Source of the DNA: Alphaproteobacteria bacterium
GTDB lineage: Bacteria > Pseudomonadota > Alphaproteobacteria > UBA7887
Direction: 5' to 3'
DNA length: 64,000 nucleotides
Assembly (NCBI GenBank): GCA_047517485.1
Contig: JAKZSU010000012.1
Location: forward strand, 643 to 64,642
Shown here piece after piece: positions 9,616 through 38,138 of the stretch. Numbering within the stretch: the stretch's first letter is position 1; each line of letters opens with the position of its first letter. The notes under the pieces are model-generated. The model worked only from the letters and a program-made list of their open reading frames with translations, did not search any database and was not told where the DNA came from. Position numbers and translations under genes: made by a program.

Positions 9616-10299
9616 GTGGATTTCATTTTTATGCTCACCCGAGCGGACAAAACGGTTGCGGATTGCGTGAGCGTAATCGACCAGGTTTTGCCGCTCGGCG
9701 TGATGCATATCGGGTTTAAGGACATCGGCGTCGACCGGGCGACGCTGATCACCGCCAATGACGCGATCAAGGGCGCGGGGGCGACGAGTTACATGGAGGT
9801 CGTCAGCACCGGCGCGGCGGACTCCTTGGACTCGGCGCGCATCGCCCGCGATATCGGGGTCGATTGCTTGCTCGGCGGCACCGAAGTCGCGGCGACCCTC
9901 GACATTCTTGACGGCAGCGGGATCGGCTATTACCCGTTCGCCGGCCGGCCGCGCGGCCATCCGACGGTGCTCGACGGCACCGCGGCAGACATCGCCGCCC
10001 AGTGTCGAAGCTTCGAGGCGGCGGGCTGCGCTGGGGTCAATTTGCTGGCTTATCGCGCCACCGAGGACGACCCCATCGCGCTGATACGCGCCGCGCGCGG
10101 CGCCATTGACGGCGTCGTGATCGTCGCCGGCAGCGTCGATTCGCCACAGCGAATCCAGGCGGTCGCGGCGGCCGGCGCCGACGCTTTCACAATTGGTACG
10201 GCGGTATTCGACGCAACCTTCGCGCCGCAAAGCGACACTTTGGCCGATCAGGTACGGGCGATCATCGACGCTTGCGCCGCCACGGAGCCGGTGAATTAG
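9616..10299 (+). CDS. hypothetical protein (possible TIM-barrel fold)
   Basis: Coding-like ORF with no family recognised by eye. GTG at 9616 is preceded by an AAGGGAG RBS; the alternative ATG is at 9571. Convergent with the threonine dehydratase gene. Confidence 0.4.
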   Translation: MDFIFMLTRADKTVADCVSVIDQVLPLGVMHIGFKDIGVDRATLITANDAIKGAGATSYMEVVSTGAADSLDSARIARDIGVDCLLGGTEVAATLDILDGSGIGYYPFAGRPRGHPTVLDGTAADIAAQCRSFEAAGCAGVNLLAYRATEDDPIALIRAARGAIDGVVIVAGSVDSPQRIQAVAAAGADAFTIGTAVFDATFAPQSDTLADQVRAIIDACAATEPVN

Positions 10300-11279: not shown

Positions 11280-11299
11280 CGTGACGTGCGGTCGAGTCC

Positions 11300-13324
11300 T
11301 TAGCGATTGGCCATCTGGCCGGCGCCGCCGATCATATCATCGACAATCCGCAATGGCGGAGGATTGGCCGGGTCGGCCAATAAATGACGATACACCTGGG
11401 CGCCTTCGAGGACACGCTGGACATAGTTTCTCGCCTCCGAGAAGGGAATCATTTCGATCCAATCCACCACGTCGACATCGGCCCGGCGCGGATCGCCATT
11501 TTGGCGGATCCATTTTTTGACCCGGCCCGGGCCCGCGTTATAGGCCGCGAACGCCAAGACCTGCGCCCCTTGATAGGATTTGAACAGACCCGACAGATAC
11601 GCCGTGCCGAGGCGAATATTGTAGGCGTCGTCGCTGGTCAGCCGAGACCGTTTGTAGGAGACACCGATTTGTTTGGCGACCTGGCGCGCGGTTGCCGGCA
11701 TGAGCTGCATCAACCCGCGCGCGCCGGCACGACTGACCGCGCGGCCGTTGAGTTCGCTTTCCTGGCGCGCCAGGCCGAGCACAACACCGAGGTCGGGCAT
11801 ACCGGGCCGCAGCGATGCATTGGCCAACGCCTTGGGGACGGGGTAGGCGGCCGGGGTCACTGTCAGGCCGGACCGAGAGACTTGCTTGGCGCCGCGAATG
11901 GCGACCTTCGCCAGATCGTAATCGAGCGCGAGCATGGCGATCATCGCCCGTTCGACCGGCGTTGTTGCGGAGCGGGCGAGATGAGCGACGATGTGCGACA
12001 TCAGATCGGAGTCCGCCAATTCGCCAAGCATTCGCGCGAGCCGGACCAGCTCGCGGGCCTCGAAAGCCTTGCGCAACGCGGGAGAAGGTTGTGGGTGATA
12101 GGGCAGGGATAGGGTCTTGCGGCCGAGCGCGATGATCGCCAGCTGGCCATAAAACGTCGTCTGCCGGCTCGCCGCCCGCGTATACCAGCGCTCCCGCTCG
12201 AGCGGAAGGCCCGCCGCTTCGGCGGCGCGGCCGCTCCAATAGGCGCCGCGGGCGATGCTGATCGGCATCGCGACGACGTCGTGCATCGTCGTGAAGTGCT
12301 GATAGGCCAGCGCCGGCTCGTCGAGAAATCGCAAAGCGATCCATCCCGCCAGCCATTCCGCCTCGGCGATCCCCGAAGCGCCGGTTTGGCCGTGTCGCGC
12401 CGCTAGGCGATAGGCGTCGGTGATGGCGCCGTCCGCCAAGGTGCGGCGGGCGAGAATATGGCGCTCTTTCCACCATCGCTTTGGCCGTACCAGATCCGCC
12501 GGTGGCTGCGCCAGGAGCGCCATCGCGCCGGCGTCGAGATCGGCGCGGCGGCGCCAGCGAACGCGCTCAAAGATCAAACCGGGATCGGAGAGCAAAGCGG
12601 CGGGAACCCGCTTGATCGTGGCATCGACGCCACCGGCGCGGCTCATCAGCGCGAGACGCGCCAATGCCAATTTGCGGTGACCATCGTCGACCCGTTTGAC
12701 CTGACGTCGCGCCGCCCGCCGTTGATTGTCCCACAGCAGCCGGTCGAGCCGCGCGATGTGGTCGTTGGCGGTCAGCACCTGCTTATGGGCCCTGAGAAAC
12801 GACTTTTCCTCGTGTGAATTGAAATTATGACCGATCCACGCCTCGCGAATATAAGCCTGCCCGCGGTCGACTTGGCCGGCGTCGATCAGTGCCTCGCCGA
12901 GCCGCCGCATGCCCGCACCGGTCATCGGCGGGTAGCGCTCGAACCAGGTGATGACAGCGTGGTCCGGCTCGCTCTCCGGCATCGCCTCCTCGGCGCGCCG
13001 CCGCAACTGATTCAAACCGGGCCAATCTCTGTTTGAATCTATAAAATTCGTTATTTCATAATATGTTGCGACGCTCCTCTTATGTTTTAAATATAGCCAT
13101 TCGACGAATTTCTCGACCAGCGGATCGCTAACCTGGCGGGCGGACGCGCGGGCCGATTTCCAGCGTCTGTTCTGGGCGTCGTTGAAGGCGGCGCGGGCCA
13201 CGCTGAGTTCGCTTTGGGAGAGGATTTGCGGCGCCGCCGCGCTCGCGTCCAGGCTCATCTCGAAGCGCGTCGCGCAAACAAGACCCAGAAAGACCGTGAT
13301 GGCTAGCCGACGCGACGAAAGCAT
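11300..13324 (-). CDS. slt: soluble lytic murein transglycosylase (Slt family)
   Basis: C-terminal SLT catalytic domain (ESELNGRAVSRAGARGLMQLMP...AYNAGPGRV), a long superhelical N-terminal region and a signal peptide (MLSSRRLAITVFLGLVCA). Confidence 0.85.
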   Translation of the reverse strand: MLSSRRLAITVFLGLVCATRFEMSLDASAAAPQILSQSELSVARAAFNDAQNRRWKSARASARQVSDPLVEKFVEWLYLKHKRSVATYYEITNFIDSNRDWPGLNQLRRRAEEAMPESEPDHAVITWFERYPPMTGAGMRRLGEALIDAGQVDRGQAYIREAWIGHNFNSHEEKSFLRAHKQVLTANDHIARLDRLLWDNQRRAARRQVKRVDDGHRKLALARLALMSRAGGVDATIKRVPAALLSDPGLIFERVRWRRRADLDAGAMALLAQPPADLVRPKRWWKERHILARRTLADGAITDAYRLAARHGQTGASGIAEAEWLAGWIALRFLDEPALAYQHFTTMHDVVAMPISIARGAYWSGRAAEAAGLPLERERWYTRAASRQTTFYGQLAIIALGRKTLSLPYHPQPSPALRKAFEARELVRLARMLGELADSDLMSHIVAHLARSATTPVERAMIAMLALDYDLAKVAIRGAKQVSRSGLTVTPAAYPVPKALANASLRPGMPDLGVVLGLARQESELNGRAVSRAGARGLMQLMPATARQVAKQIGVSYKRSRLTSDDAYNIRLGTAYLSGLFKSYQGAQVLAFAAYNAGPGRVKKWIRQNGDPRRADVDVVDWIEMIPFSEARNYVQRVLEGAQVYRHLLADPANPPPLRIVDDMIGGAGQMANR

Positions 13325-13497: not shown

Positions 13498-14403
13498 ATG
13501 TTTCACGGGTCGTTCACCGCGCTGATCACGCCGTTCGAGAATGGCAAGGTCGCCGATAGAACTTATCAAGAATTTGTGAATTGGCAGATCGAGCAAGGAT
13601 CGCACGGGCTGGTTCCGTGCGGCACCACCGGGGAATCGCCGACGCTCCGTCATACCGAGCATCGCCATGTCACCGAGCTATGCATCGAAGCGGTCGGCGG
13701 GCGAGTTCCGGTGATCGCCGGCGCCGGGTCCAATTCGACCGAGGAAGCCGTCGATCTGACCAAACACGCGCACCAGGCCGGCGCCGACGCGGTGCTGGTG
13801 GTGACGCCCTATTACAACAAGCCGACCCAGGACGGGCTGTACGCCCATTTCGAGGCGGTCGCCGCGGCCGCCGATATCCCGGTGATCATCTACAATATTC
13901 CCGGGCGCTCGGTGGTCAATATGTCGGTGGCGACAATGGCCCGGTTGGCGTGCTTGGCAAACATCGTCGGGGTCAAGGACGCCACCGCCGATCTGACCCG
14001 CCCGCTCGACGAACGCGCGGCGATCGATGGTGATTTCTGCCTGCTATCCGGCGAGGACGGGACCGCGCTGGCTTATCTCGCCAATGGCGGCCATGGCTGT
14101 ATCTCGGTGACCGCCAATATCGCGCCGGCGCTGTGTGCCGAAATGCAGAACGCGTGGCGAGACGGCGACGCGGCACGCGCCCTGGCGGTCCAGGATTCGT
14201 TGATGCCGCTTCATTCAAATCTCTTCGTCGAAACCAGTCCCGGGCCGGTCAAATATGCCGCGAGCTTGCTCGGTCTGTGCTCGGGCGAGCTGCGTCTGCC
14301 GATGGTCGAGGTGACCGAGGCCACCAAGGATGTGGTGCGCGCCGGGCTCGAAGCGACCGGCCTGTTGAACGAGGGCGTCGAGCAATGGCGAGCGGCGAAC
14401 TGA
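13498..14403 (+). CDS. dapA: 4-hydroxy-tetrahydrodipicolinate synthase
   Basis: DapA motifs (ITPF, GTTGES, VGVKDA) and typical length. Conserved slt-dapA-smpB synteny. Confidence 0.9.
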
Positions 14404-25500: not shown

Positions 25501-27735
25501 TTGAATATGGCCCGCAAGACTGATAGCGCCCAGATTATCCCCGTATCCCTCGCCGAGAGTTTGAGCGAACGCTATTTGTCGTATGCCATGTCGACGATCA
25601 TGGCGCGCTCGCTGCCCGACGTTCGCGACGGCTTGAAACCTGTACATCGCCGTCTGCTTTACGCCATGCGGCAGCTCAAACTCGACCCCAAGTCCGGCTT
25701 CAAGAAATGCGCGCGGGTGGTTGGCGACGTGATCGGCAAATATCATCCGCACGGCGAATCCGCTGTCTATGACGCGATGGTCCGCCTCGCGCAGGATTTC
25801 GCGGTGCGCTATCCGCTGGTCGACGGGCAGGGGAATTTCGGCAATGTCGACGGCGATGGCGCGGCGGCGATGCGCTATACCGAGGCCCGCCTGACCGATG
25901 TCGCCGAGGCCTTGCTCGAAGGGATCGACCAGGGCACGGTCGATTTTCGCGACACCTATGATGGCGAGGAATCCGAGCCCGTGGTGTTGCCCGCGGCCTT
26001 TCCCAACCTGCTGGCCAACGGCGCCAACGGTATCGCGGTCGGCATGGCGACCTCGATTCCACCGCACAACGCGCATGAATTGTGTGACGCCCTGATCCAC
26101 TTGATCAAGACGCCGAACGCGCGCATCGAGACCCTGGTCGACATGGTGCCGGGACCCGATTTCCCCACCGGCGGGGTGCTGGTCGAAAGCCGCGCGGCGA
26201 TCGTCGAGGCCTATGCCAGCGGGCGTGGCGCGTTTCGCGTGCGCAGTTGCTGGCAGCTCGAGAAAATCGGTCACGGTCAATATCAGATTATCGTCACCGA
26301 GCTGCCGTACCAGGTTCCCAAGGCGCGTTTGATCGAGAAAGTCGCCGACCTGATGGCGGCCAAGAAGCTGCCGTGGCTTAGCGATATCGTCGACGAATCA
26401 GCGGAAGACGTGCGCATCGTATTGGTGCCGAAATCGCGCGGCGTCAAAGCCGAGGCGTTGATGGAATCGTTGTTCCGCGTCACCGAGTTCGAGGCCAGGG
26501 TCTCGCTCAACCTCAATGTGCTCGACGCCGACAACCGCCCGCGTGTCATGTCGTTGCGCGATGCGCTGCAGGCGTTTCTCGACCATCGCCGGGTCGTGCT
26601 CCAGCGCCGAAGCGCCCATCGATTGGCCCAGATCGAACGTCGGCTCGAGGTCTTGGGCGGCTATTTGATCGCCTACGTCAATCTCGACGAAATGATCCGC
26701 ATCATCCGCGAGGAGGATGAGCCCAAAGCGGTGATGATCGCGCGCTGGGACCTGAGCGAGGTCCAGGCCGAAGCCATCCTCAACATGCGATTGCGCAATT
26801 TGCGCAAACTCGAAGAAATCGAAATTCGCCAAGAGCTGATTGGTCTCAGCGACGAGCAAGCTGCGTTGGAGGCCTTGCTCGGCGACGAGAAGGCGCAGTG
26901 GCGGCGGATTACCGAAGAGATCAAGGGCATCCGTAAACGCTTCGGCAAGGACACCAAACTGGGTGCGCGGCGAACCGAGATCGGCGCCGCGCCGACCGCC
27001 GAAATCGTTCCCCTCGAGGCGATGGTCGAGCGCGAACCGGTGACCGTGATCTGTACCGAAAAGGGGTGGATCCGCGCCGCCAGGGGGCATCTCGCCGACG
27101 ATGTCGAGCTCAAGTTCAAGGAAGGCGATCGGTTATGGTTGCGGGTTCATGCCTATTCGACCGACAAAATTTTGGTCTTCGCGACCAACGGCCGGTTCTA
27201 CACCCTCGGCTGTGATCGATTGCCCGGCGGACGCGGGTTCGGCGAGCCGTTGCGGATGATGATCGAGCTCGGCAACGACCATGATCTGGTCGCCCTGATG
27301 GTGCAAATGCCCGAACGCCGCTATCTCGTGGCGGCCAGCGACGGGCGCGGATTTCTCGTCGATACCGACGGTGTGGTCGCGCAAAAACGCGCCGGCAAAC
27401 AAGTGCTCAACGTCTCCGGCGAAGTCGAGGCGATACTCTGTGCGCCGGCCGACGGCGACCATATCGCGGTGATCGGCGAGAACCACAAGCTCCTCGTCTT
27501 CAAGATCGACGAGGTGCCGGTGATGACCCGCGGGCGCGGCGTCATTCTCCAGAAATTCAAGGATGGCGGCCTGTCCGACGCCCGCGCCTTCGCGTTGTCC
27601 GATGGCTTGAGTTGCCGCCAGGGATCGCGCATTCGGACCTTTGTGCAAGCGGAAATCGACGACTGGATCGGCCGTCGCGGCAACGCCGGACGCCTGGCGC
27701 CGAAGGGATTTCCAAAAAGCAACAGGTTCGCGTAA
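25501..27735 (+). CDS. parC: DNA topoisomerase IV subunit A
   Basis: GyrA/ParC N-terminal domain ([34 protein letters not shown]). The 744-aa length favours ParC over GyrA. Confidence 0.85.
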
Positions 27736-27745
27736 CCGACGAAGC

Positions 27746-28459
27746 CTATTCGGCGGCGAGTCCTTCGGCGTTCTCCACCGGCCGCGGCAGGCCGAGCCGC
27801 CCGAGCATCCGCTGTTTGACCACGGCGATCACCTGTTCGACCCGATCCGGCGAATAGCTGTCCCAACCAAGACTGCGCAAAATCACCGAATCCGTCTTGC
27901 AAAAAGTCAGGAAATCCCCCGCCAAGGCGGCGCTCAATACGCCCAGACGATCAGGGTCGGTCTCGCCGGTAGCGGCGGTCGCAAGTCTTTTCATGATCAT
28001 GTTGGCGGGCTTGAAGACCGCTTCATAAATTGGTTCCTCGCCGCTCGGCAGGCTGCTCATGGCGCGGATGAGCACCGTCACCCACCATTTCTCCCGCGCC
28101 GTCGGCAGCGCCGCGCCGAGGAAGGAGTCGACAAACCGCGACACCGCGCCGGCGAGTCGGTCGGGATCGCCGTCGGCCTCCTCTACGCCTTGCGACAGCG
28201 CCTCGAAAATGCCCCAGGTCTGGGTGGCGCAGGATGCGATGACGTGGTCGACGACAGCATCCTGAAGCCCCTTCTTGCCGCCGAAATAATAGGCGATCGC
28301 CGCCAGATTGACGCCCGCGGCACTGGTGATCTCGCGCGTCGAGAACGCGGCGCCGCCGCGCTCGGCATAGAACACGCCGGCGGTATGGAGCAGCCTTTCT
28401 CGGCAGCAACGAGGGTTGCTACAGAGCGACTCGAGGATTTTCTCGACACCTTTGGGCAT
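27746..28459 (-). CDS. TetR/AcrR-family transcriptional regulator
   Basis: N-terminal TetR HTH (RERLLHTAGVFYAERGGAAFSTREITSAAGVNLAAIAYYF). Confidence 0.75.
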   Translation of the reverse strand: MPKGVEKILESLCSNPRCCRERLLHTAGVFYAERGGAAFSTREITSAAGVNLAAIAYYFGGKKGLQDAVVDHVIASCATQTWGIFEALSQGVEEADGDPDRLAGAVSRFVDSFLGAALPTAREKWWVTVLIRAMSSLPSGEEPIYEAVFKPANMIMKRLATAATGETDPDRLGVLSAALAGDFLTFCKTDSVILRSLGWDSYSPDRVEQVIAVVKQRMLGRLGLPRPVENAEGLAAE

Positions 28460-28505
28460 GGGCCCTTCACATCGGATCCGAACGCGCGCCGACTATAGCC
28501 GACAG

Positions 28506-28536
28506 CTTACGCAGTGCAAGCACGTGTGTGCGTAAG
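28506..28536. promoter_or_regulatory. 31-bp palindrome (8-bp arms CTTACGCA...TGCGTAAG) about 50-75 bp upstream of the tetR start; candidate TetR operator
   Basis: A perfect 8-bp inverted repeat flanks a 15-bp spacer. It lies in the tetR promoter region, divergent from the small-protein / TRAP side. Confidence 0.35.
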
Positions 28537-28656
28537 ATTTAGCCGCCTCCCCGCGGCGAAGCGGGGAGGCGGTGAGCGAATCCGACCGTTTGTTTGCAGG
28601 CGCCGACGATGCGGCGTGGTCGCAGTCGCTCTACCCTAAATCCAGGCCGAATAGGG

Positions 28657-28992
28657 TCAGTGGCCGGCGGAGAGACCGCGCGGGTGCGTGTGCTCGGCGA
28701 TCTCGCGACCGGTAAGCGGCGCGGTGACCACGGTCGGGCGTTCGTCGGTGGTGCCGTGGGCGAAGGTGGTGGCGCGGGTATTGGCGGTCGCGCGGCCGGT
28801 GGAGGGCGTGGTGGCCTTGCTGATTGCATTGACGGTCGCGGTCACCGCGGTCGTCGCGACGGTCTTGGCATAAACGTTCGATGCCGGCATGGCATGGCTT
28901 GTCGCGATGAAAAACCCGCCGGCCATCGCCGTGGCAATCAGGGTTCGGGCAAAGGCGGAGGAGGTCTTGGTGAGGTTCGAGTGGCGGGTCAT
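28657..28992 (-). CDS. small secreted Thr/Ala-rich protein with His-rich C-terminus (hypothetical)
   Basis: AAGGGAA RBS 8 nt upstream of the ATG and a signal peptide ending SHA|MPA. The mature ~77-aa region has low complexity (TVATTAVTATV...HTHPRGLSAGH). The coding call is uncertain. Confidence 0.35.
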   Translation of the reverse strand: MTRHSNLTKTSSAFARTLIATAMAGGFFIATSHAMPASNVYAKTVATTAVTATVNAISKATTPSTGRATANTRATTFAHGTTDERPTVVTAPLTGREIAEHTHPRGLSAGH

Positions 28993-29280
28993 CGTTGCAT
29001 TCCCTTACGGTTCCAGGCTCGTATCGTGGCGATGGCACAGCTATGACACGGCGTGCGCGCGCGTCCTATGAAGCGGCTCACGGTCGCGGTGTGAACTACT
29101 TCATAAGGACGCACATGGGTTTTCGGAAAGGCGCAAAAACCGCAGCAATTTATTCGATTTTTCTGTCTTGGATCAGGTATTTCGTCGTCAGCGCCGCTTA
29201 TCACTTGGTCTCGGAGGCGGAATTCAATAGGTTTGCCGCTCTGATGAGCGAATCCGTCGAACGCTGGGGTACCGCGCGCC

Positions 29281-29823
29281 GTGAACGCACTGTTGGGCAT
29301 AGCCCGATTTATCGATAATTTCAACGACCGGGTCGGCCGCGCCGTTGCCTGGCTAACGCTTCTCATGGTGATCGTGACCGTCATCATCGTGGTGCTGCGC
29401 TATGGCTTCAACATCGGCTTCATATGGATGCAGGAATCGGTGCGTTTCATGCATGCGTTCGTGTTCCTGCTCTGCGCCGCCTATACCTATCGCCATAACG
29501 AGCATGTTCGGGTCGACATTTTCTATCTCAAGATGAGCGAGCGCGGCAAAGCGTGGATCGATTTGTTCGGCAATCTCGCCTTCATGATCCCGGTCTGTGG
29601 GGTCATCATCTGGTTCTCGATCGACTATGTGCTCAACAGCTGGTCCGCGCTGGAAGGCTCGCTCGAGGAGCGCGGGCTCCACGCCGTATTCCTGCTCAAG
29701 ACCTGCATCTGGATTTTCGCCGGCACCATGATCGCCCAGGCGCTCTCGCGAATCATCCACTGCATCGCCACCATCACCGGATTCGAGCACGAGTCTCCCG
29801 ACACTCACGAGCACGCGTTGTAG
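29281..29823 (+). CDS. dctQ: TRAP transporter small permease subunit
   Basis: Four-TM DctQ-like protein; immediately followed by dctM. Confidence 0.8.
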   Translation: MNALLGIARFIDNFNDRVGRAVAWLTLLMVIVTVIIVVLRYGFNIGFIWMQESVRFMHAFVFLLCAAYTYRHNEHVRVDIFYLKMSERGKAWIDLFGNLAFMIPVCGVIIWFSIDYVLNSWSALEGSLEERGLHAVFLLKTCIWIFAGTMIAQALSRIIHCIATITGFEHESPDTHEHAL

Positions 29824-29835
29824 GGGCGACGGCGG

Positions 29836-31227
29836 ATGGTCTACGAGTTTTTTGTCGTCGCCATGATCCTCACCTTGTGCGGCGCCCTGCTGCTGGGCTT
29901 CCCGGTCGCCTTCACCCTGTCCGGCGTCGCCCTGATCTTCGCCTATGTCGGCTTTGGCCTCGACCTGTTCGAACTGGCCTTCGTGCAAGCGTTGCCCAAC
30001 CGCATCTACGGCATCATGACCAACGATCTGCTGATCGCGGTGCCGCTGTTCGTCTTCATGGGCGTCATGCTCGAGCGCTCGAAACTCGCGGAAGCTTTGC
30101 TCGACACCATGGCGCTGTTGATGAGCGGGGTACGCGGTGGCCTCGGTATCGCGGTGTGCATCGTCGGTGCATTGTTGGCCGCTTCAACCGGTATTGTCGG
30201 TGCCACCGTGGTCACCATGGGTCTGCTTTCCTTGCCGACCATGTTGAAGCGCGGTTATGGAGCGCCCATCGCCTGTGGCTCGATTTGCGCCGCTGGAACC
30301 CTGGGACAAATCATTCCGCCCTCGATCGTCCTCATCTTGCTCGGCGATCAGATTTCCGCTGCATATCAGCAGGCGCAGCTGGCGGCGGGAAATTTTGCCC
30401 CCGAACCAGTCTCGGTCGCCGATCTTTTCGTTGGCGCCTTGATCCCGGGCTTCGTTCTGGTCGGGCTCTATATCGTTTGGCAATTCGTCTACGCAACCAT
30501 TTATCCTGACCAGATGCCGCCGGTGCCCGCCGAGGAACGCGCGGCGATCAAGCGTTCCGAGATGATTGGCCGGGTTCTTAAGGTCTTGATGCCGCCACTC
30601 ATGTTGATCGTTCTCGTTCTCGGATCGATTCTGATTGGCTTGGCGACTCCGACCGAGGCTGCTGGGGTCGGCGCCATGGGGGCGATCGGGCTCGCCGCGT
30701 GGCGACGCCAGGTGACCTTGGTGAACCTGCGCGCGGTGATGCAATCGACCGCCAAGATCTCGTCGATGGTTTTCGTCATTCTCATCGGCGCGCAACTGTT
30801 CAGCCTGGTTTTCCGCGGCTTCCAGGGCGACGAGATCGTTGCCGACTTCCTGCAAGGGCTGCCCGGCGGCATCTTCAGCGCCATGCTGCTGACCATGGTG
30901 CTGATGTTTCTGCTCGGCTTTTTCCTCGACTTTATCGAGATCGTATTCGTCGTCGTGCCGATCGTCGGCCCGGCGCTGCTGGCGCACGAGGGGATCAGCC
31001 CGGTGTGGTTCGCGATCATGATCGCGGTCAACATCCAGACCTCGTTCCTGACCCCGCCGTTCGGCTTCGCGCTGTTCTATTTGCGTGGCGTCGCGCCGGA
31101 CTCGGTCAAAACCATCGACATCTATCGCGGCGTCGTGCCGTTCGTGTTCATTCAGCTCTTGATGCTGGGCATTCTCGCCGCGTTCCCGGCGATGGCGACC
31201 TGGCTACCGAAAGTGGTCTACGGCTAA
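29836..31227 (+). CDS. dctM: TRAP transporter large permease subunit
   Basis: 12-TM DctM family; 463 aa. Confidence 0.85.
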   Translation: MVYEFFVVAMILTLCGALLLGFPVAFTLSGVALIFAYVGFGLDLFELAFVQALPNRIYGIMTNDLLIAVPLFVFMGVMLERSKLAEALLDTMALLMSGVRGGLGIAVCIVGALLAASTGIVGATVVTMGLLSLPTMLKRGYGAPIACGSICAAGTLGQIIPPSIVLILLGDQISAAYQQAQLAAGNFAPEPVSVADLFVGALIPGFVLVGLYIVWQFVYATIYPDQMPPVPAEERAAIKRSEMIGRVLKVLMPPLMLIVLVLGSILIGLATPTEAAGVGAMGAIGLAAWRRQVTLVNLRAVMQSTAKISSMVFVILIGAQLFSLVFRGFQGDEIVADFLQGLPGGIFSAMLLTMVLMFLLGFFLDFIEIVFVVVPIVGPALLAHEGISPVWFAIMIAVNIQTSFLTPPFGFALFYLRGVAPDSVKTIDIYRGVVPFVFIQLLMLGILAAFPAMATWLPKVVYG

Positions 31228-31593
31228 ACGGAAGATTTATTTGATCGAACGCTGGTCGCGCCGCGTTTTGCCTTTCCGGCTGATAACCATCCGCCGCGAT
31301 CTCGACTGTTGGCGAGCGGCGGCGCGACCATCGATACGGATTCGATTTTAGATCTTCACCCAGTATGAGCGGAGACCACTATATCGAGCAAGTTTATCGA
31401 GAAGATAACTTAGGCTCATTGTCGGTGGTTCGGCCCCACGCCGCCCCTTCGGCACCCATTTCCCAGTCGAGAAAACTGGATATAGAACTAAATCACCGGT
31501 TGTCAACATGCCGGAAACACAACATTATCCCGAAATTATGGCATAGAATCCAATCTATGGATGTACGGGTAAATCGACCGCCGGGAAACCGGT

Positions 31594-32685
31594 CTAAGAC
31601 GCCCGATCGTTCATGTATCCTTGTTCGGCGAACGGCGCGCGCGCCACCGATTCGGCGCGGAACTTGGCCCAGCTTTCATAGATTCGCTTGGCCAGTTCGC
31701 CTTCGTTCGCGGTTTCGCTGACCACGTCGTGTGACGCCGCGAACATCGCTTTCACGACATCTTTCGGAAAGCTGCCGATCTTCACGCCATGGACCTCGAC
31801 AAGCTTGGTTTGCGCCGCGCTGTTGCCGGCGGTGAATTCGCTCAAAGTGTAGCTCGTCTCGGCGGTGCAGGCGGCCTCGACGATCGCCTGCAGATCTTTC
31901 GGCAGCTCTTCGTATTTGTCTTTCGCCACGATGACCTCGATCGACGAGCTCGGCTCATGAAAGCCCGGTCCGTAATAATATTTGGCGATCTTGTGAAAGC
32001 CGAACGCGAGATCGTTCCACGGTCCGACCCACTCGGTGGCATCGATCACCCCCGATTGCAGCGCCGGCATGATCTCGCCGCCGGGCATATTGACCGCGGT
32101 CACGCCCAACCGGTTGATCACCTCCGCGCCGAGGCCGGGCATCCGCATTTTCAAGCCCTTGAGGTCGTCCAGCCCGTTGATTTCCTTCTGAAACCAACCG
32201 CCCATCTGCACCCCCGAGCCGCCCGCCAGGAAGGCTCTCAGCCCGAATTCCGCATACAATTCGTCCCACAGCTTCTGGCCGCCGCCGTGATAGATCCAGC
32301 CCATGTGCTCCTGGTGGGTCAGGCCACCCGGCACGGTGCAGAAGAACGGTGTGCTCTTGTGCTTGGCGACCCAGTAGTAAGACGCGTCGTGGCTCATCTC
32401 GGCGATGCCCTCGCGCACCGCGTCGAAGGCTTCGAAAGCGGGCACCAGTTCGCCCGCCGCGTACAGCCGGATATCCATCCGTCCATCCGACATGGTCTTG
32501 ATGCGGTCGGCCACCCGCTGCGCACCGGTGCCGAGGCCAGGGAAATTCTTCGGCCAAGTGGTCACCATTTTCCACCGCACATTGCCCTGGGCGATCGCCG
32601 GTGCGGGAAGGGCGGATGCCGCCGCGGCCGAACCTGCCGCCGCGCCAACCAGAAAACGCCGTCGAGCGTTGGATTTGACCGTCAT
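31594..32685 (-). CDS. TRAP transporter substrate-binding protein (DctP-type, COG4663-like), paralog 1
   Basis: Tat-type signal (MTVKSNARRRFLVGAAAGSAAAA) and conserved WPKNFPGLGTGAQ...KYYYGPGFHEP blocks shared with the two upstream paralogs. A GGGGAA RBS precedes the internal ATG. Confidence 0.8.
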   Translation of the reverse strand: MTVKSNARRRFLVGAAAGSAAAASALPAPAIAQGNVRWKMVTTWPKNFPGLGTGAQRVADRIKTMSDGRMDIRLYAAGELVPAFEAFDAVREGIAEMSHDASYYWVAKHKSTPFFCTVPGGLTHQEHMGWIYHGGGQKLWDELYAEFGLRAFLAGGSGVQMGGWFQKEINGLDDLKGLKMRMPGLGAEVINRLGVTAVNMPGGEIMPALQSGVIDATEWVGPWNDLAFGFHKIAKYYYGPGFHEPSSSIEVIVAKDKYEELPKDLQAIVEAACTAETSYTLSEFTAGNSAAQTKLVEVHGVKIGSFPKDVVKAMFAASHDVVSETANEGELAKRIYESWAKFRAESVARAPFAEQGYMNDRAS

Positions 32686-32710
32686 TTTTATTCCCCTGTC
32701 TCGGTTTGAA

Positions 32711-33820
32711 TTAGAGATCGCGCTGATTGAGCGCGCCTTGCTCCGCATACGGCGCCAAAGCGATTACCTGGGTCTTGAACCGTGACCAATTATCGTAAAT
32801 TCGTCGTGGCAGCTCGCCGTCTTCGGCGGTCTCCGCGACAACCTCGGCGCTGATCGCGCGTAAGCCCCGGATCACGTCGTCGGGCATCGGCCGGGGCACG
32901 ATGCCGTGATCGCGCGCCAACGACTCGAGCGACGCCGCGTTGCCGGCGGTGAACTCGGACAGCATGCGCTGGTTCTCGGCTTCGGCGGCATGGCGCACGA
33001 TGATTTTCAAATGGGGCGGCAAACCATCCCATTGCTCGCGATTGATCGCCAACTCCAGCGTCGCGCCGGGCTCGTGAAAGCCCGGCCCATAATAATATTT
33101 CGCCGCCTTGTGGAAGCCGAACGCGAGATCGGTCCACGGTCCGGCGAACTCGACCGCGTCGATCACACCGGACTGCATGCTGCTCATGATTTCGCCGCCC
33201 GGCATGCTGATCGCCACCCCGCCGGCGCGATTGATGACTTCGCCGGCGAGCCCCGGAATGCGCATCCGCAAGCCCTCGATATCGCTCAGGCTGTTGATCT
33301 CCTTATTGAACCAACCGCCCATCTGGGTGCCGGTATTGCCCGCCGGCCAGGCTTTCAGCCCGTACTCGCCGTAGATCTCGTCCCACAGCTCCTGGCCGCC
33401 GCCGTAGGCGAGCCAGGCGTTTTGTTCTTGCGCGACCAAACCGCCGGGGACCACCGCGAAGAACGCGAAGTTCTTGCTTTTTCCCGTCCAATAGGCCGCG
33501 CCGGCGTGCCCCATTTCGGCGGTTCCCTGTCGCACCGCATCGAAAATCTCGAATGCCGGCACCAGCTCCCCGGCGGCATAGAGTTTTATCGCCAACGCGC
33601 CCTCGGACATCTCGGTGATCGAATCCGCGATCCGTTGCGCCCCGGTCCCGAGACCGGGAAAATTTTTCGGCCACGCGGTCACCAGGCGCCACTGACGGCG
33701 ACCTTGCGAGAGCGCCGGCGCGGGCAGGGCGGCGGTGGCGGTGGCCGCCGCGCCGGCGGTCAACACGGTGCGACGCGATAGCCGGCCGCGCTGTAAAATT
33801 TCGGAATCTTTTTTCGTCAT
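32711..33820 (-). CDS. TRAP transporter substrate-binding protein, paralog 2
   Basis: Same family blocks. Start taken at the internal ATG (MTKKD...RRTVLTAGAAATATAA), forming an ATGA overlap with paralog 3. Confidence 0.8.
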   Translation of the reverse strand: MTKKDSEILQRGRLSRRTVLTAGAAATATAALPAPALSQGRRQWRLVTAWPKNFPGLGTGAQRIADSITEMSEGALAIKLYAAGELVPAFEIFDAVRQGTAEMGHAGAAYWTGKSKNFAFFAVVPGGLVAQEQNAWLAYGGGQELWDEIYGEYGLKAWPAGNTGTQMGGWFNKEINSLSDIEGLRMRIPGLAGEVINRAGGVAISMPGGEIMSSMQSGVIDAVEFAGPWTDLAFGFHKAAKYYYGPGFHEPGATLELAINREQWDGLPPHLKIIVRHAAEAENQRMLSEFTAGNAASLESLARDHGIVPRPMPDDVIRGLRAISAEVVAETAEDGELPRRIYDNWSRFKTQVIALAPYAEQGALNQRDL

Positions 33821-34962
33821 GCGTCTTGTGCCTTGCCTCGATTGTGAATGAATCCATAGTCGGATAACGGTTGATACGCCATCGCCCGCTTTCGGAAACT
33901 GCTCCAGCTTTCGTAGATCCGCCGATTGAGATCGCCTTCCGATGCCGTCTCGGCGTTCACCTCGGCGGAAATCTGAAAGGCTCTCTTGAGCACGTCTTCG
34001 GGAAAATGCCGCACGATGACGCCGTGCTCGTTGACCAACGTGTCGAGGGTCTCGGCACTGCGCGCGAAATACTCGGCCGGCAATTTCATGTTCGCTTCCT
34101 GGCACGCGACGCGGACGACCGCTTGCAAATCGGCAGGCAGGCTTCGCCACTTGTCCTCGTTGATCAGCAGCTCGCTGGCGGTGCTGCCTTCATGAAATCC
34201 GGGTCCGTAATAATATTTCGCGACCTTATAGAACCCCATCGCCAGATCGACCCACGGTCCGACCCATTCGGCCGCGTCGATGACGCCGGACTGCAATGCC
34301 GGCATGATCTCGCCCGCCGGCATGTTGACCGCGGTCGCGCCCATCCGATTGAGAACTTCGGCGCCGAGACCGGGAATACGAATGTTGAGCCCGTCGAAAT
34401 CAGCCAGCGAGTTGATTTCGTTTTGATACCAGCCGCCCATCTGGGTGCCGGTATTGCCGCACATGAAGGCGCGCACGCCGAATTCGGCGTACAGCTCGTC
34501 CCACAAGGCTTGCCCGCCGCCATAGAGAATCCAGGCATTGTGCTCGATCACGCTGAGACCACCGGGAACGGCGCAGAAAAACGGCAAGCTCTTGTTCTTC
34601 GCCACCCAGTAATAGGGGGCGTCGTGCGAGCAATCGGCGGTACCCTCGCGCACCGCATCGAAAGATTCGAACGCCGGCACCAATTCGCCGGCGGCGAACA
34701 ACCGCAGGGCCAGCCTGCCGTCGGACATCGCGGTAATGGTATCGGCGAGTTCTTGCGCCGCGGTCCCGGCGCCGGGGAAATTCTTCGGCCACGTGGTGAC
34801 CATTTTCCACTCGTGCAGGCCCTTGGCGACCATCGGCGCCCGGCCCGGCGCCTCGGGCGTCCCGGGCGCCATTGGAGTCGGCCCGGTCCTCGCCAGATAC
34901 GTCGCACCAGCGGCGACGACCGCGCCGGTGGCGGCGCCAGTCAGAAAATCCCGACGTTGCAC
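33817..34962 (-). CDS. TRAP transporter substrate-binding protein, paralog 3
   Basis: GTG start with a GGGGAGG RBS and a Tat signal (QRRDFLTGAATGAVVAAGA). Same family blocks. Confidence 0.8.
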   Translation of the reverse strand: MQRRDFLTGAATGAVVAAGATYLARTGPTPMAPGTPEAPGRAPMVAKGLHEWKMVTTWPKNFPGAGTAAQELADTITAMSDGRLALRLFAAGELVPAFESFDAVREGTADCSHDAPYYWVAKNKSLPFFCAVPGGLSVIEHNAWILYGGGQALWDELYAEFGVRAFMCGNTGTQMGGWYQNEINSLADFDGLNIRIPGLGAEVLNRMGATAVNMPAGEIMPALQSGVIDAAEWVGPWVDLAMGFYKVAKYYYGPGFHEGSTASELLINEDKWRSLPADLQAVVRVACQEANMKLPAEYFARSAETLDTLVNEHGVIVRHFPEDVLKRAFQISAEVNAETASEGDLNRRIYESWSSFRKRAMAYQPLSDYGFIHNRGKAQDA

Positions 34963-35021
34963 GAAGTCCTCCCCTGATCGGCCACACGTGGCCGTTCAGC
35001 GGGATTATAAGTCGGCGAGGG

Positions 35022-35810
35022 CTATTTGTCGCTCGCGTTTGGACGAAATAGTGTCCACTCCTCGCCAATCAGCGCTTCAAGCGGTTGAAACCGGGCCTTG
35101 TAGGCCATTTTCGGGCTCTCGCCGATCCAGTAGCCGAGATAGACATAGGGCAGGTCGAGGGCACGCGCGCGTTCGATATGCCACAGGATCACATAGGTGC
35201 CGGGACTGGTCCGCGACCGGTCGGCGACGAAAAACTTATAAACGCCCGACAGACCATCGCCCAGCCGATCGGTCAGCGAGACCGCTATGAGCCTGTTATC
35301 GGCGCCGCGGAACTCAACGATCCGGGTTTCCACCGGAGTATCCTCGACCATCGAGCGATAGTCGCTGAAATCCATCAATGCCATGTCGCCGTCGCTATGG
35401 CGGGTTTGCTCATATCCTTGAAAAACGTGGAACTGTTCCGCGGTGGCGATCGGCGGGCGTTCGACCGCGGTCAGATCGGCGTTCCGAATCAGCACCTTAC
35501 GCATCGATCGGCTCGGACGAAAACCGTCGACCACCACGCGAACCGGGACACACGCGCGACAATTCTCGCATGCCGGGCGATAGGCGATGCCATGACTGCG
35601 ACGAAATCCCGCCTGGCTCAACATATCGTGCAGCCGCGGCGCGCCCGGGCCGACGAGCTCGGTCACCGCCTTCGCCTCGAATTTGCCCTTGATATACGGA
35701 CACGGCTGTCGCGCGGTGCCGAAAAAGAACTGCAGATCTCGCGGATCGATATTGAGCATGTCTCTTGGTATCGCCCGATGCGGGTTATTGGCCGCTAAGT
35801 GGTAGACCAT
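35022..35810 (-). CDS. bpt: arginyl-tRNA-protein transferase family protein (bacterial Asp/Glu leucyltransferase Bpt)
   Basis: ATE N- and C-domain motifs (CPYIKGK, CENCRACVPVRV, ...GVYKFF). Confidence 0.8.
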   Translation of the reverse strand: MVYHLAANNPHRAIPRDMLNIDPRDLQFFFGTARQPCPYIKGKFEAKAVTELVGPGAPRLHDMLSQAGFRRSHGIAYRPACENCRACVPVRVVVDGFRPSRSMRKVLIRNADLTAVERPPIATAEQFHVFQGYEQTRHSDGDMALMDFSDYRSMVEDTPVETRIVEFRGADNRLIAVSLTDRLGDGLSGVYKFFVADRSRTSPGTYVILWHIERARALDLPYVYLGYWIGESPKMAYKARFQPLEALIGEEWTLFRPNASDK

Positions 35811-37680
35811 AGTACCACGGTGCGAAGGCCGTGAAACAGGCCCATATCAACAACAGGAGCGGCAGCCCGCTGCGGACATAGTCGACGAAACGATAATGAC
35901 CCGGCGCCATTACCAATAAGTTGGTCTGATAGCCGACCGGAGAAGCGAACGAACAACTCGCGGCGAAAATCACCGTATAGACGAACGGCATCGGGTCGAC
36001 ACCGAGCTGGATCGCCAAATTTACCGCGATCGGGGTGAACAAAACAGCCGAAGCATTATTGCTCAGCACGTTGGTAAGCAGCGCGATCAGCAAGAAAAGC
36101 GCCGACATCAGCCAACCCGGGCTGGCGCCGTCCATCGTGGTCACCAGCGCGTTGGCGATGAACGCGGCGCCACCGGTCTCGCTCATCGCCAGGCCGAGCG
36201 CCAGGGTCGCCGCCACCGTCATCACCACCGTTCGATCGATTGCGCGGGCGGCCTGGCGCGTGGTCAGACATCCGGACAGCATCATCGCCACCGCGCCGCC
36301 GACGGCGGCGACGACGATCGGTAGCACATTGGTCGCCGCCAAGATTACCACCGACGCGAAGATGGCCGCGGCCCGGCGGGCGTGGAAATAGTTCGGCAGC
36401 GTCTGCTGCGTCCATTCGATCAAGATCACGTCGCGGTTGGCGCGCAACGATTGAACGTCTTCGGGGCGGCCCTGCAACAACAGCACGTCGCCAGCCTCGA
36501 GCCGAATGTCGGTGACGCGTTGGCGGAACATGCGCGAACGCCGCTGAACCCCGAGAACGATGCAGTCGAAGCGATGGCGAAATCCGTAGAGTTCCAAAGT
36601 CTGGCCGATCATCCGCGACGCCGGTGTGATCATCACTTCGGCAAGTGCCTGCTCGCCGCCCTCCCACGGCGCGGGCTCGGCGCCTTGCTCCTGTTCGGCT
36701 TGACCTTGTTCATATTGCTGGTGCGTGAGGCTGGGGTGAAGCGAGCCCGGATGGCGCGCCAGTAAATCGGTCAACGCCTTGCGTGTCGCGGCGACCACGA
36801 TGGCATCGCCGGCTTGCAGTTCGAGATCGTCGAAAGGCGGCAGGAACGCGTGTTCATCACGATGCACCATGCGAACCGTGGCATCCGGCAAGCTGCGAAA
36901 CATGCCGGCGACCGCGGCATCGCCGACCATCGCATCGCCGTCCTGAACCTCGACCTGGGCAATGAATTGGCGGCCGTCCCCGGTAAGTATTCCCGCCAGC
37001 GTCGCGCGATCGGGCAGCAAGCGCGGCAAAATGACGATCAGATAGACCAGTCCGACCCCGGCGAGAACCAAGCCCGGAACGACGAAATCGAAAAACCCGA
37101 TTGTCGGCAGGCCGAGATCGCGGGCCACCCCGGCGACCAGGAGGTTGGTCGAGGAGCCGATCAGTGTCGTCATGCCGCCGAGGATCGAGGCAAAACTCAA
37201 GGGCAGGAGAATGCGGCTTACCGAAACGTTCAAGCGTTCGGCCAACGCGCTCATGATCGGGATGAAGATCACCACCACCGGGGTATTGTTGAGCACGCTC
37301 GAGAGCGCGGCAACGGGAATCAGACTGATCGTCATGGCAATCAGCAATCGGCCACCGCTAATCCGGTGAAGAAAGCTCGCGACGCCTTCCAAGGCGCCGG
37401 TGCGCACCAACGCTTGGCCGATAACCAGCAGCGCGACCACGGTGATCAGCGCCGGATTGGCGAATCCCTCGAGCAAGCGCGCCGCCGACAGCCGGTTGAG
37501 CCCGTCGGCATCCTCCAGCGGCGCGATTTGGAACAACAGTAGGAGGATCGCGAGCAGCGCCACCGCGGTCAATTCGAGCGGCGCGCGATCCGCGATGAAG
37601 GCGACGATCGCCCCCAAGACCAACGCGAGGACGGCCCACATCTGCCAAATGTGGCCGTCGAGAAGGGTTTCGCTGATCAT
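35785..37680 (-). CDS. anion permease of the SLC13/DASS (ArsB/NhaD superfamily) type with two central TrkA-C domains
   Basis: About 12 TM segments plus two cytoplasmic TrkA-C-like repeats; 631 aa. Confidence 0.7.
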   Translation of the reverse strand: MISETLLDGHIWQMWAVLALVLGAIVAFIADRAPLELTAVALLAILLLLFQIAPLEDADGLNRLSAARLLEGFANPALITVVALLVIGQALVRTGALEGVASFLHRISGGRLLIAMTISLIPVAALSSVLNNTPVVVIFIPIMSALAERLNVSVSRILLPLSFASILGGMTTLIGSSTNLLVAGVARDLGLPTIGFFDFVVPGLVLAGVGLVYLIVILPRLLPDRATLAGILTGDGRQFIAQVEVQDGDAMVGDAAVAGMFRSLPDATVRMVHRDEHAFLPPFDDLELQAGDAIVVAATRKALTDLLARHPGSLHPSLTHQQYEQGQAEQEQGAEPAPWEGGEQALAEVMITPASRMIGQTLELYGFRHRFDCIVLGVQRRSRMFRQRVTDIRLEAGDVLLLQGRPEDVQSLRANRDVILIEWTQQTLPNYFHARRAAAIFASVVILAATNVLPIVVAAVGGAVAMMLSGCLTTRQAARAIDRTVVMTVAATLALGLAMSETGGAAFIANALVTTMDGASPGWLMSALFLLIALLTNVLSNNASAVLFTPIAVNLAIQLGVDPMPFVYTVIFAASCSFASPVGYQTNLLVMAPGHYRFVDYVRSGLPLLLLIWACFTAFAPWYYGLPLSGQ

Positions 37681-38138
37681 TCCGGTGGATTCGACAACCG
37701 GTCCCGCAGCTCCTTCGGAAGTGGCGCCGGACGCTGAGTTTCAGGATCCACTTTCACCAACACTTCTTCGGCTGTGGCCGTACATACCCCATCTTGAAAT
37801 AGCCCCTGACCCACCCTCGTCGAAGTTCGCCCGATGCGCATCACCCGGGTGCCCACATTGACCTCACCGGGATAATGCATCTGCGCGCGAAAATCGATCG
37901 TCATGTGGACGATCATGAAATCATCCGCCGGCAGGACTACGCCCGACCCGCACGCCCCGAAAAACGCGATTCGCCCGGATTCGCAAAACCGCATGAACTG
38001 GACATTGTTGATATGACCCAATCCATCGGTATCCCCCCAGCGCATGATATCGGTCGACCAGAACCGGTACGAGGCCGGATCGGCAAGATCGAATGTCGGG
38101 AAATCGGTCGAGCGAGGCTCGGTGCTGTCGGGCATCAA
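37677..38138 (-). CDS. acyl-CoA thioesterase (hotdog fold, 4HBT-like)
   Basis: GHINNVQFMRFCESGR hotdog signature. 4-bp overlap with the downstream permease. Confidence 0.75.
   Translation of the reverse strand: MMPDSTEPRSTDFPTFDLADPASYRFWSTDIMRWGDTDGLGHINNVQFMRFCESGRIAFFGACGSGVVLPADDFMIVHMTIDFRAQMHYPGEVNVGTRVMRIGRTSTRVGQGLFQDGVCTATAEEVLVKVDPETQRPAPLPKELRDRLSNPPE

Follow-up and report, generated by a model that had tools for sequence, protein, structure and literature searches.

Can the membrane subunits of one transporter of the tripartite ATP-independent periplasmic (TRAP) type, DctQ and DctM (QM), accept several substrate-binding proteins (SBPs)? The question is raised by a locus on contig JAKZSU010000012.1 of an Alphaproteobacteria bacterium placed in UBA7887 (GenBank assembly GCA_047517485.1), of which a stretch of 64,000 nucleotides (positions 643 to 64,642 of the contig), here called the window, was analyzed. 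At this locus, a single dctQ-dctM pair stands beside three consecutive genes for SBPs of the DctP family, named SBP1, SBP2, and SBP3 here. In 2025, a TRAP laboratory described TRAP SBP-QM pairing as "usually unique" and found it surprising that a second SBP should be used (PMC12599236). With moderate confidence, and on the strength of sequence comparisons, we favor the reading that one DctQM permease is served by three ligand-specialized TakP-like SBPs. The locus is a natural, conserved test case for the question, in which the SBP pockets have changed at defined positions, the anchor residues and presumably what docking demands have remained constant, and a close single-SBP outgroup is available. 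It would also provide a clean system for the study of specificity residues in the poorly characterized TakP subfamily and of substrate-range expansion in uncultured bacteria. No new mechanism or protein family is indicated; what is new is a conserved three-SBP TRAP arrangement, the parts of which are known.

All parts of the locus belong to known families: a TRAP DctQ/DctM pair, TakP-type SBPs of the DctP family, and a TetR regulator. PF03480 scores of the three SBPs range from 157 to 175 bits, and all three proteins exceed the cutoff of the NF037995 TRAP_S1 model. With DctQ and DctM, the predicted gene set of a DctPQM-type TRAP transporter appears complete, and no further TRAP genes were found within the 64-kb window. 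A preliminary description of this DNA had reported that dctQ-dctM (+) converge on three consecutive DctP-type SBP genes (−), and Pfam and NCBIfam assignments together with open reading frame (ORF) coordinates agree with it; the SBP genes lie 366 bp from dctM. The paralogy claimed there is borne out by pairwise identities of 57 to 61% and by WPKNFPG and KYYYGPGFHE blocks common to all three SBPs. The overlap of the SBP3 stop and the SBP2 start in ATGA, also reported earlier, was located at positions 33817 to 33820 from translations and alignment, and a gap of 25 nt separates SBP2 from SBP1. The same gene models were obtained on conspecific metagenome contigs by an independent gene caller. The TakP-type identity of the SBPs, the parC/ate/DASS synteny, and the N-terminal extension of SBP3, all presented below, go beyond the preliminary description.

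The best PDB matches of SBP1 were 4YZZ, 5CM6, 4PET, 2HZK, and 7UG8 (E values of 1e-74 to 1e-81), and across SBP1 to SBP3, the matches to this group of structures (4YZZ/4YIC, 5CM6, 4PET, 2HZK/2HZL, and 7UG8) had E values of 1e-65 to 1e-81, with alignments that covered approximately residues 8 to 359, nearly the full length of the SBPs. The lactate-binding protein TTHA0766 of Thermus (2ZZV) was next in the ranking (1e-36 to 1e-40), and classical DctP and SiaP-type structures scored far lower against all three SBPs. The entry pair 2HZK/2HZL, for which E values of 8e-76 and 5e-72 were obtained, is TakP, deposited in the PDB under the old SmoM annotation, and 7UG8 carries the title "ketoacid-binding protein." We take the ligand of 4PET and 5CM6 to be pyruvate and that of 4YIC to be picolinate.

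Residue numbers used here are those of TakP, the sequence of which was rebuilt from the published alignment before positions were mapped. In TakP, a salt bridge from Arg177 and a hydrogen bond from Tyr100 hold pyruvate; the cation has Gln156, Glu214, Glu240, and the Trp215 backbone as its ligands; and the cavity for the alkyl chain is lined by Y99, F40, V97, V245, A212, residue 213, P243, T153, and I47 (PMC1839085). Y100, Q156, R177, E214, and E240 are present in SBP1 to SBP3 and, without exception, in the related single-copy SBPs examined, which number more than 60, and the carboxylate-binding Arg (R177) aligned with Arg in all three paralogs and all relatives. At residue 215, of which TakP uses only the backbone, SBP2 has Phe where SBP1 and SBP3 have Trp. 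The same Q-R-E-E scaffold for cation and carboxylate is visible when the SBPs are aligned with solved TakP relatives; the alignment with TakP itself runs up to residues 349 to 353, beyond which SBP1 to SBP3 extend further. Since all of these anchor residues are conserved, we assign SBP1 to SBP3 to the TakP-like, cation-dependent SBP subfamily of the 2-oxo-acid type. Their ligands are most probably carboxylates with a 2-oxo or 2-hydroxy group, bound together with a cation.

The residues that line the rest of the pocket set the three paralogs apart. SBP1 has the pattern that is near universal in single-copy relatives (W40, L47, A97, Y99, T213, W215, V216, and P241). SBP2 is distinguished by Y99A/G (Y99A in the window), T213V, W215F, and V216A, and both Tyr99 and Trp215 are invariant in the locus-derived sequences other than SBP2; an enlarged, remodeled pocket is proposed for this paralog. 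SBP3 is distinguished by L47A/G, T213A, P241G, G242S, and a polar residue at position 245. Pocket residues are identical within each orthogroup across lineages at 66 to 80% identity and differ between orthogroups, and the paralog-specific substitutions are kept among orthologues in at least six lineages. In a protein search with SBP2, its signature was present in all 16 clusters with at least 67% identity, directly after which the score dropped from 558 to 502 bits; the signature was also found in L008, L012, L091, L092, and L094 (labels of this form denote the loci and contigs compared with the window). Among solved structures, 7UG8 has Phe215 as in SBP2, yet keeps Tyr99, and 4YZZ differs in its pocket (Thr99/Met100).

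All three SBPs are under purifying selection between lineages. In comparison with L091, the ratio of nonsynonymous to synonymous substitution rates (dN/dS) was 0.077 for SBP1, 0.098 for SBP2, 0.088 for SBP3, and 0.082 for DctM, with dS near saturation; only these values are given because dS is saturated for more distant lineages (L092). Considering the constant anchors, the fixed paralog-specific changes in the cavity, and the purifying selection, SBPs for different members of one chemical family would be expected. Of the two roles that the preliminary description had offered for multiple SBPs, a broadened substrate range is thus the better reading of invariant anchors versus conserved pocket differences, and a division into high and low affinity is less favored.

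From these observations, we infer the ligand class, the differing specificities, and the docking of all three SBPs on this DctQM, and the following model may be proposed. An ancestral single SBP gene would have been triplicated in one clade of uncultured Rhodospirillales-like alphaproteobacteria, and the three copies would have persisted in an SBP3-SBP2-SBP1 operon downstream of ate, with SBP3 and SBP2 translationally coupled. All three SBPs would be exported via the twin-arginine translocation (Tat) pathway, and the Pro-rich extension of SBP3 may correspond to what is, in related proteins, the linker between the domain and a lipid anchor. The Arg-plus-cation site common to the three SBPs would hold the carboxylate and the 2-oxo or hydroxy group of the ligand, while the side-chain lining of the pocket would be ancestral in SBP1 and separately changed in SBP2 and SBP3. 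Each SBP would capture a different member of one chemical family and dock on the same DctQM, by which one permease would import a wider set of substrates in a TakP-type TRAP uptake of small 2-oxo/2-hydroxy monocarboxylates or closely related anions. SBP1 would be the core partner, and SBP2 and SBP3 would be accessory and dispensable in some strains.

The N termini bear on the question of whether the SBPs instead share one ligand. Twin-arginine (RR) motifs, as noted in the preliminary description, were found in each SBP (ARRRFLVG in SBP1, SRRTVLTAG in SBP2, and QRRDFLTG in SBP3), followed in each case by an Ala/Gly-rich stretch. The signals of SBP1 (PAPAIA/QG) and SBP2 (PAPALS/QG) end in plausible cleavage sites of the A-x-A type, and SBP3 has no clear AxA site (candidates are AGA/T and YLA/R). 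SBP3 and all of its orthologues have a Pro-rich extension of approximately 25 to 30 aa with the motif GTPxxPGxAPxV ahead of the globular domain, and a motif of this type follows the lipobox cysteine in SBPs of the Tat-lipoprotein type in L009, L015, and L012 (L012_1, the SBP1 orthologue). As a related observation, the combination of an RR motif and a lipobox cysteine was found in the SBPs of L009, L015, L013, L019 to L022, and L025, in the L012 SBP1 orthologue, and in SBPs of L040, L070 to L073, L081, and L086, which marks these proteins of Gram-negative lineages as Tat-exported lipoproteins; lipoprotein versions are frequent in the family; the Pro-rich motif in the form GTPxxPxxAPxV was seen in the nearest lipoprotein-type SBPs (L009, L015, and L012_1) and in SBP3-type proteins.

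It is possible, if unlikely, that SBP1 to SBP3 bind the same ligand and divide their roles by affinity, cation dependence, expression condition, or location. SBP1 and SBP2 could, for example, be free and SBP3 near the membrane, giving high- and low-affinity or near and far capture for one permease. Such a division would be in keeping with the identical anchor residues of SBP1 to SBP3 and with the presence of the Pro-rich GTPxxPGxAPxV extension in SBP3 alone. SBP3 may indeed be held near the membrane, or it may simply be N-terminally extended; however, the hydrophobicity of its hydrophobic (h) region, estimated on the Kyte-Doolittle scale, is approximately 1.4, compared to approximately 1.5 for SBP1 and SBP2, and since the h-region is no more hydrophobic than theirs, a stable membrane anchor is not indicated; candidate sites for cleavage are also present in SBP3. 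Moreover, the changes that define the orthogroups concentrate in the side-chain pocket of TakP (Y99, I47, T213, P243, and V245; PMC1839085) and are fixed across lineages, which is the pattern expected for changed specificity.

At the other end of the proteins, TakP forms a back-to-back dimer via a swapped C-terminal helix (residues 326 to 365), both in crystals and in solution (PMC1839085). Coexpressed paralogs could heterodimerize in the same manner and so provide a docking unit with two different binding sites, an arrangement that we regard as very unlikely here. It would be compatible with the alignment of all three SBPs through the C-terminal region that makes TakP dimeric, with the translational coupling of SBP3 and SBP2, and with C-terminal tails that are conserved within each orthogroup. 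Nevertheless, the tail sequence is PLSDYGF in SBP3 but P[YF]AEQG in SBP1 and SBP2, a difference that speaks against free mixing, and a role of dimerization in transport is not established even for TakP.

Whether orthologous loci carry one or several SBPs, a comparison proposed in the preliminary description, was examined in 80 loci from species-representative genomes, with DctM as the anchor and neighbors located by tblastn. A single TakP-like SBP was present in 60 of the 80 loci and three in only 2 (L008 and L012), which are the nearest relatives of the window (DctM 80 to 81% identical); the other 18 had no TakP-like SBP on the contig DNA examined, and many of those contigs are short. Beyond these genomes, four of the 16 clusters from the SBP2 search were traced to their contigs, and SBPs of the three types in the order 4HBT-DASS-ate-SBP3-SBP2-SBP1 were found in four further metagenomic lineages (L091, a JGI contig, L092/L093, and L094/L095). 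In three of the four, dctM-dctQ follows convergently after the array, in two of these with genes inserted in the spacer. Three SBPs and one dctQM are thus found together in the window, L008, L012, L091, L092, and the JGI contig. In a neighbor-joining tree, SBP1 to SBP3 formed one clade with the single SBPs from L009 and L015, in which each paralog grouped with its own L008 and L012 orthologues and SBP1 was sister to the single-copy genes. Since 60 of the 80 loci have a single SBP and the same array order recurs in further lineages, the array, with its old paralogs, is seen as a stable expansion specific to one clade, derived from an ancestral system with one SBP.

The surroundings of the array are also conserved. 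Among the 80 loci, dctQ orthologues adjoin dctM in nearly all, SBP and dctQM share a strand in 40 and are on opposite strands in 22, and neighbors include ate (31 loci), parC (31 loci), both of these (25 loci), and a DASS permease (16 loci). An old, conserved parC-dctQM-SBP-ate-DASS block was found in Thalassospira, Pelagibius, Kordiimonas, Parvibaculaceae, and others, and all three-SBP lineages carry DASS and ate genes beside the array. In its longer form (parC, dctQM, TakP-like SBP, ate, DASS/CitMHS permease with TrkA_C, and 4HBT thioesterase; positions 25501 to 38138 of the window), the block occurs in many alphaproteobacterial orders, with examples in L009, L015, L024, L026, L030, L091, and L092. 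In L092 and the JGI contig, ate and the first SBP gene have a 4-nt overlap, which implies cotranscription; we know of no functional link between this N-end-rule enzyme and a TRAP SBP. In the chromosome-level relative L012 (CBDCGL010000011.1; 2779 to 8548 of the locus), the 6.8-kb interval between parC and dctQ holds genes for a BTAD/TPR regulator, a class I/II aminotransferase, a D-2-hydroxyacid dehydrogenase, and a response regulator. The aminotransferase and dehydrogenase genes lie directly upstream of dctQ, and since enzymes of these kinds act on 2-oxo and 2-hydroxy acids, they provide a hint from genomic context; no counterpart of the two genes was found nearby in the window.

Several points weigh against the reading of one permease with three specialized SBPs. 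That the three SBPs would all dock on this DctQM is deduced from adjacency and common descent, and the SBP operon is transcribed as a unit of its own, convergent with dctQM. An intact array is present in L094 (6404 to 10069) and L095 (3668 to 7333) with no dctQM in the 14-kb contig, L012 encodes a further SBP paralog elsewhere, and solitary TakP-like SBP genes with other pocket variants are found in related metagenomic bacteria; given the solitary genes and the extra L012 paralog, partner swapping is possible. The assignment of a ligand class rests on homology at approximately 40% identity to TakP, and a cation-dependent SAR11 TRAP SBP, of unconfirmed membership in the TakP subfamily, binds isethionate (PMC11485210), for which reason related anions are left as possible ligands. 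Within the species, SBP2 and SBP3 show possible signs of decay. The sample consists of six contigs from different metagenome assemblies with the locus at approximately 99 to 100% identity to the window; it is small, its sequences are related, and assembly errors are possible, among them the L001 deletion below. In L003 and L004, which differ from each other at a nearby single-nucleotide polymorphism (SNP), a C5 run of SBP3 is shortened to C4 (window position 34615; ERZ23495149 and ERZ6111505), and SBP3 of L001 has an independent 1-bp deletion at window position 34867 (ERZ21829562); in L006 (approximately 14050 to 14090, equivalent to window position 34084), a 21-bp perfect in-frame tandem duplication (GTGCCAGGAAGCGAACATGAA twice) adds 7 residues. 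Nonsynonymous and synonymous SNPs number 7:0 in SBP2 and 6:2 in SBP3, or 13:2 together, and one of them, SBP2 Y244N (window position 33091), falls in the invariant KYYYGPGFHE block in the L003 and L004 haplotypes that carry the C5-run deletion. The accessory SBP2 and SBP3 may therefore be losing function in part of the population.

The array without dctQM and the solitary genes could mean that SBP2, SBP3, or both serve another TRAP QM or act as periplasmic sensors, their present position being only their birthplace. SBPs are known to act in signaling, and the separate transcription of the SBP operon and dctQM would also fit such an explanation, as would the L094/L095 array and solitary TakP-like SBP genes with no QM within 7 kb. 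We nevertheless consider it rather unlikely, as the cognate SBP of this locus gave rise to the paralogs; linkage to dctQM is kept in the window and in the five other loci and contigs named above (L008, L012, L091, L092, and the JGI contig); and no sensor kinase, chemoreceptor, or second QM was found within the window. The concern raised in the preliminary description, that the SBPs pair with other dctQM loci, is touched on but not borne out by the L094/L095 lineage, in which the array lacks an adjacent dctQM. There, the array follows DASS-ate, and the next genes are SQS_PSY, DUF498, and secF/secD. The solitary SBP genes in L096 (7001 to 8140), L097 (7001 to 8092), and a contig of JGI 3300072015 (P0069) have other residues (Val, Ser) at position 99, metabolic or transposase genes as neighbors, and no TRAP membrane genes within 7 kb; P0023, P0045, and P0069 are such solitary SBPs among metabolic genes.

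The same two observations, the array without dctQM and the solitary SBPs, can alternatively be read as a sign of common permease sharing in the group. Extended further, a single TakQM-type permease might be the hub for a panel made up of the three array SBPs and solitary paralogs, with mixed dimers rendering specificity combinatorial outside the membrane. This extension seems to us quite improbable; if it were true, the hub permease would be a TRAP counterpart of the orphan expansions of Bug proteins among tripartite tricarboxylate transporters (TTT), with an added layer of heterodimers.

The population data raise the possibility that SBP2 and SBP3 are redundant duplicates drifting to pseudogenes. 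Pseudogenization had been named as a concern in the preliminary description; all three SBP genes are intact in the window, but SBP3 is frameshifted in three of the six conspecific contigs (L001, L003, and L004). The L006 duplication, a 6-bp deletion in SBP2 of L002, and the 13:2 excess of nonsynonymous SNPs point in the same direction as the frameshifts. The corresponding SNP ratio over the neighboring parC, TetR, dctQ, dctM, SBP1, ate, and DASS genes was 10:13 (P = 0.016 versus SBP2 plus SBP3; two-sided Fisher test), including 0 nonsynonymous and 3 synonymous SNPs in dctM and 1 of each in SBP1. However, SBP1 to SBP3 are undamaged here, as they are in six or more further lineages that diverged to 66 to 80% identity, dN/dS is approximately 0.09, and the pocket signatures are fixed, by which decay is largely refuted as a general explanation and is, in our view, highly improbable. 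If real, the decay is recent and confined to some strains. The frameshifts and the nonsynonymous excess suggest an accessory status for SBP2 and SBP3, with loss or relaxation of these two in some strains and continued constraint on SBP1 and DctQM.

That several SBPs can serve one translocator is established for ATP-binding cassette (ABC) importers (PMC12599236) and assumed for Bug/TctC expansions (PMC5812351). Among ABC importers, HisJ and the LAO protein with HisQMP are paralogous SBPs of related, distinct specificities on one translocator (Thomas 2010, Mol Microbiol 75:6, as cited in PMC12599236), in a different transporter superfamily with a different energy source. The orphan Bug/TctC proteins of Bordetella (PMC5812351) resemble the present case in that SBP genes outnumber permease genes and solitary SBPs lie among metabolic genes, but they belong to an unrelated SBP family with unrelated membrane components and to a far larger expansion. 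Within TRAP transporters, the QM of Pseudomonas aeruginosa IctPQM has been proposed to accept a second, closely related DctP-type SBP, DctP (PMC12599236); there, the second SBP comes from another complete system and its use is presented as noncognate leakage, whereas here the SBPs are encoded at the same locus and conserved. The TakP/TakQM system of Rhodobacter sphaeroides (Gonin et al. 2007, PMC1839085) shares with SBP1 to SBP3 the DctP subfamily, the anchor residues, the Tat-type RR signal, and, at the sequence level, a C-terminal extension. It differs in sequence (approximately 40% identity) and in being the study of a single binding protein, compared to three with different pocket linings here, and the preference of TakP for 2-oxobutyrate and 2-oxovalerate over pyruvate need not transfer to SBP1 to SBP3.

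Table. Features of the dctQM-SBP locus and its flanks, in window coordinates.
Feature	Position	Strand	Evidence or remarks
parC	25501–27735	+	ORF list and family scans
TetR/CecR-like regulator gene	27746–28459	−	PF00440, 30.4 bits (cutoff 24); PF09209 CecR_C, 41 bits
Perfect 8-bp inverted repeat, CTTACGCA-N15-TGCGTAAG	28506–28536		47 bp upstream of the TetR start; once in the window
GC-rich hairpin with 12-bp stem	28543–28572		Downstream of the 111-aa ORF; 100% complementary; no U-tail
111-aa Thr/Ala-rich ORF, signal-peptide-like N terminus	28657–28992	−	Coding-like codon statistics
Imperfect 39-bp palindrome, TATGAAG..CTTCATA	29067–29105		Between the 111-aa ORF and dctQ
dctQ, TRAP small membrane subunit (180 aa)	29281–29823	+	PF04290, 72.8 bits (cutoff 28.3), E = 3e-20
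dctM, TRAP large membrane subunit (463 aa)	29836–31227	+	PF06808, 254.9 bits, E = 2e-75; TIGR00786, 302 bits (cutoff 268)
Convergent dctM/SBP1 spacer (366 bp)	31228–31593		Lower GC content, ~0.56
SBP1 (363 aa), ancestral-type pocket, RR signal	31594–32685	−	PF03480, 175 bits
SBP2 (369 aa), derived pocket, RR signal	32711–33820	−	PF03480
SBP3 (381 aa), derived pocket, RR motif and Pro-rich extension	33817–34962	−	PF03480
Inverted repeat, 15-nt arms, 2-nt center	34971–35002		Just upstream of SBP3
Promoter-like site, GCGACA-17-TATAAT	35032–35004	−	Consensus scan, 10/12; in the 59-bp ate-SBP3 gap
ate, arginyl/leucyl-tRNA-protein transferase	35022–35810	−	Pfam/NCBIfam
DASS/CitMHS permease with two TrkA_C domains	35785–37680	−	Pfam/NCBIfam

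Upstream of dctQ, the divergent TetR gene had been suggested as a possible part of the same unit as the transporter. In L091, the interval from parC to dctQ holds an orthologue (61.5% identical), and the JGI contig has a similar gene in this position, so that an insertion unique to the species of the window is ruled out. None of the 80 genome loci has the gene, and parC is usually next to dctQ there. Because it is a recurrent neighbor in part of the three-SBP clade, the TetR protein is a reasonable candidate regulator of dctQM; its membership in the unit is partly supported, by two other three-SBP lineages, and finds no parallel among the genome loci. The perfect inverted repeat upstream of TetR, proposed earlier as its operator, lies exactly where it was described. 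Matches to it at up to 3 mismatches occurred in 11 of 100 shuffles, for which reason it is not statistically compelling on its own. In the closest relatives, L087 and L088, which keep both flanking genes at approximately 90% identity, mutations have altered its arms and a 136-bp insertion separates them, and no similar repeat was found in L091. With the repeat destroyed or missing in these relatives, we do not endorse it as the TetR operator.

The 111-aa ORF is probably a real, fast-evolving, lineage-restricted gene, judging from its codon usage and its homologs. Its GC content at third codon positions (0.85) and codon log-likelihood (0.405 per codon) are within the range of real genes, unlike those of overlapping frames. 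It matched no Pfam or NCBIfam family, and among 5.8 billion proteins, three clusters were found (100, 86, and 75% identical), the members of which are all 111 aa long and located between TetR and dctQ. The dN/dS of the ORF is 0.35 to 0.8, and it is missing from L091 despite the presence of TetR and the array there. Inclusion of the ORF in the transporter unit, as suggested in the preliminary description, is rejected on the basis of this narrow distribution (only lineages at 75% identity or above) and the absence in L091. In the segment from 28543 to 28656, the 83 nt after its stop are slightly better conserved (96 and 89%) than the ORF (90 and 86%), although the numbers are small, and the GC-rich hairpin at their end is retained in L087, L088, and L090; the segment could be an element of the 3′ untranslated region. 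The imperfect palindrome between the ORF and dctQ is kept in L087 and L088 with a compensatory change in both arms (TATGAGG/CCTCATA) and is conserved only in lineages that have the ORF. The codon statistics of four other ORFs (28594 to 29046, 28631 to 29038, 28995 to 29318, and 31365 to 31721) are noncoding, and these were rejected as genes, as was a 67-aa gene called upstream of dctQ, which lies inside one of them.

No riboswitch or known RNA was detected with Rfam (E values up to 1) in positions 27500 to 35200. In a scan for promoters and terminators, counts across the region were no higher than in shuffles. The promoter-like site and the inverted repeat between ate and SBP3 (together 34971 to 35032) could give the SBP operon of this species a regulated start of its own. 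In the dctM/SBP1 spacer, neither an inverted repeat nor a terminator-like site was found by the scan and a repeat search. The spacer has 13.7 SNPs per kb, the second-highest density of the scored segments, and that between TetR and the 111-aa ORF has 20.3 per kb. In relatives, the dctM/SBP1 spacer is a hot spot for insertions and holds 2 to 3 inserted genes (L091, 10444 to 11963; JGI contig, 10245 to 11548), among them a toxin-antitoxin pair (ParE/PhdYeFM). An integrase (rve) insertion of the insertion sequence type was found in L002 (18816 to 19721) downstream of the 4HBT gene, and L002 is the only conspecific contig to carry it.

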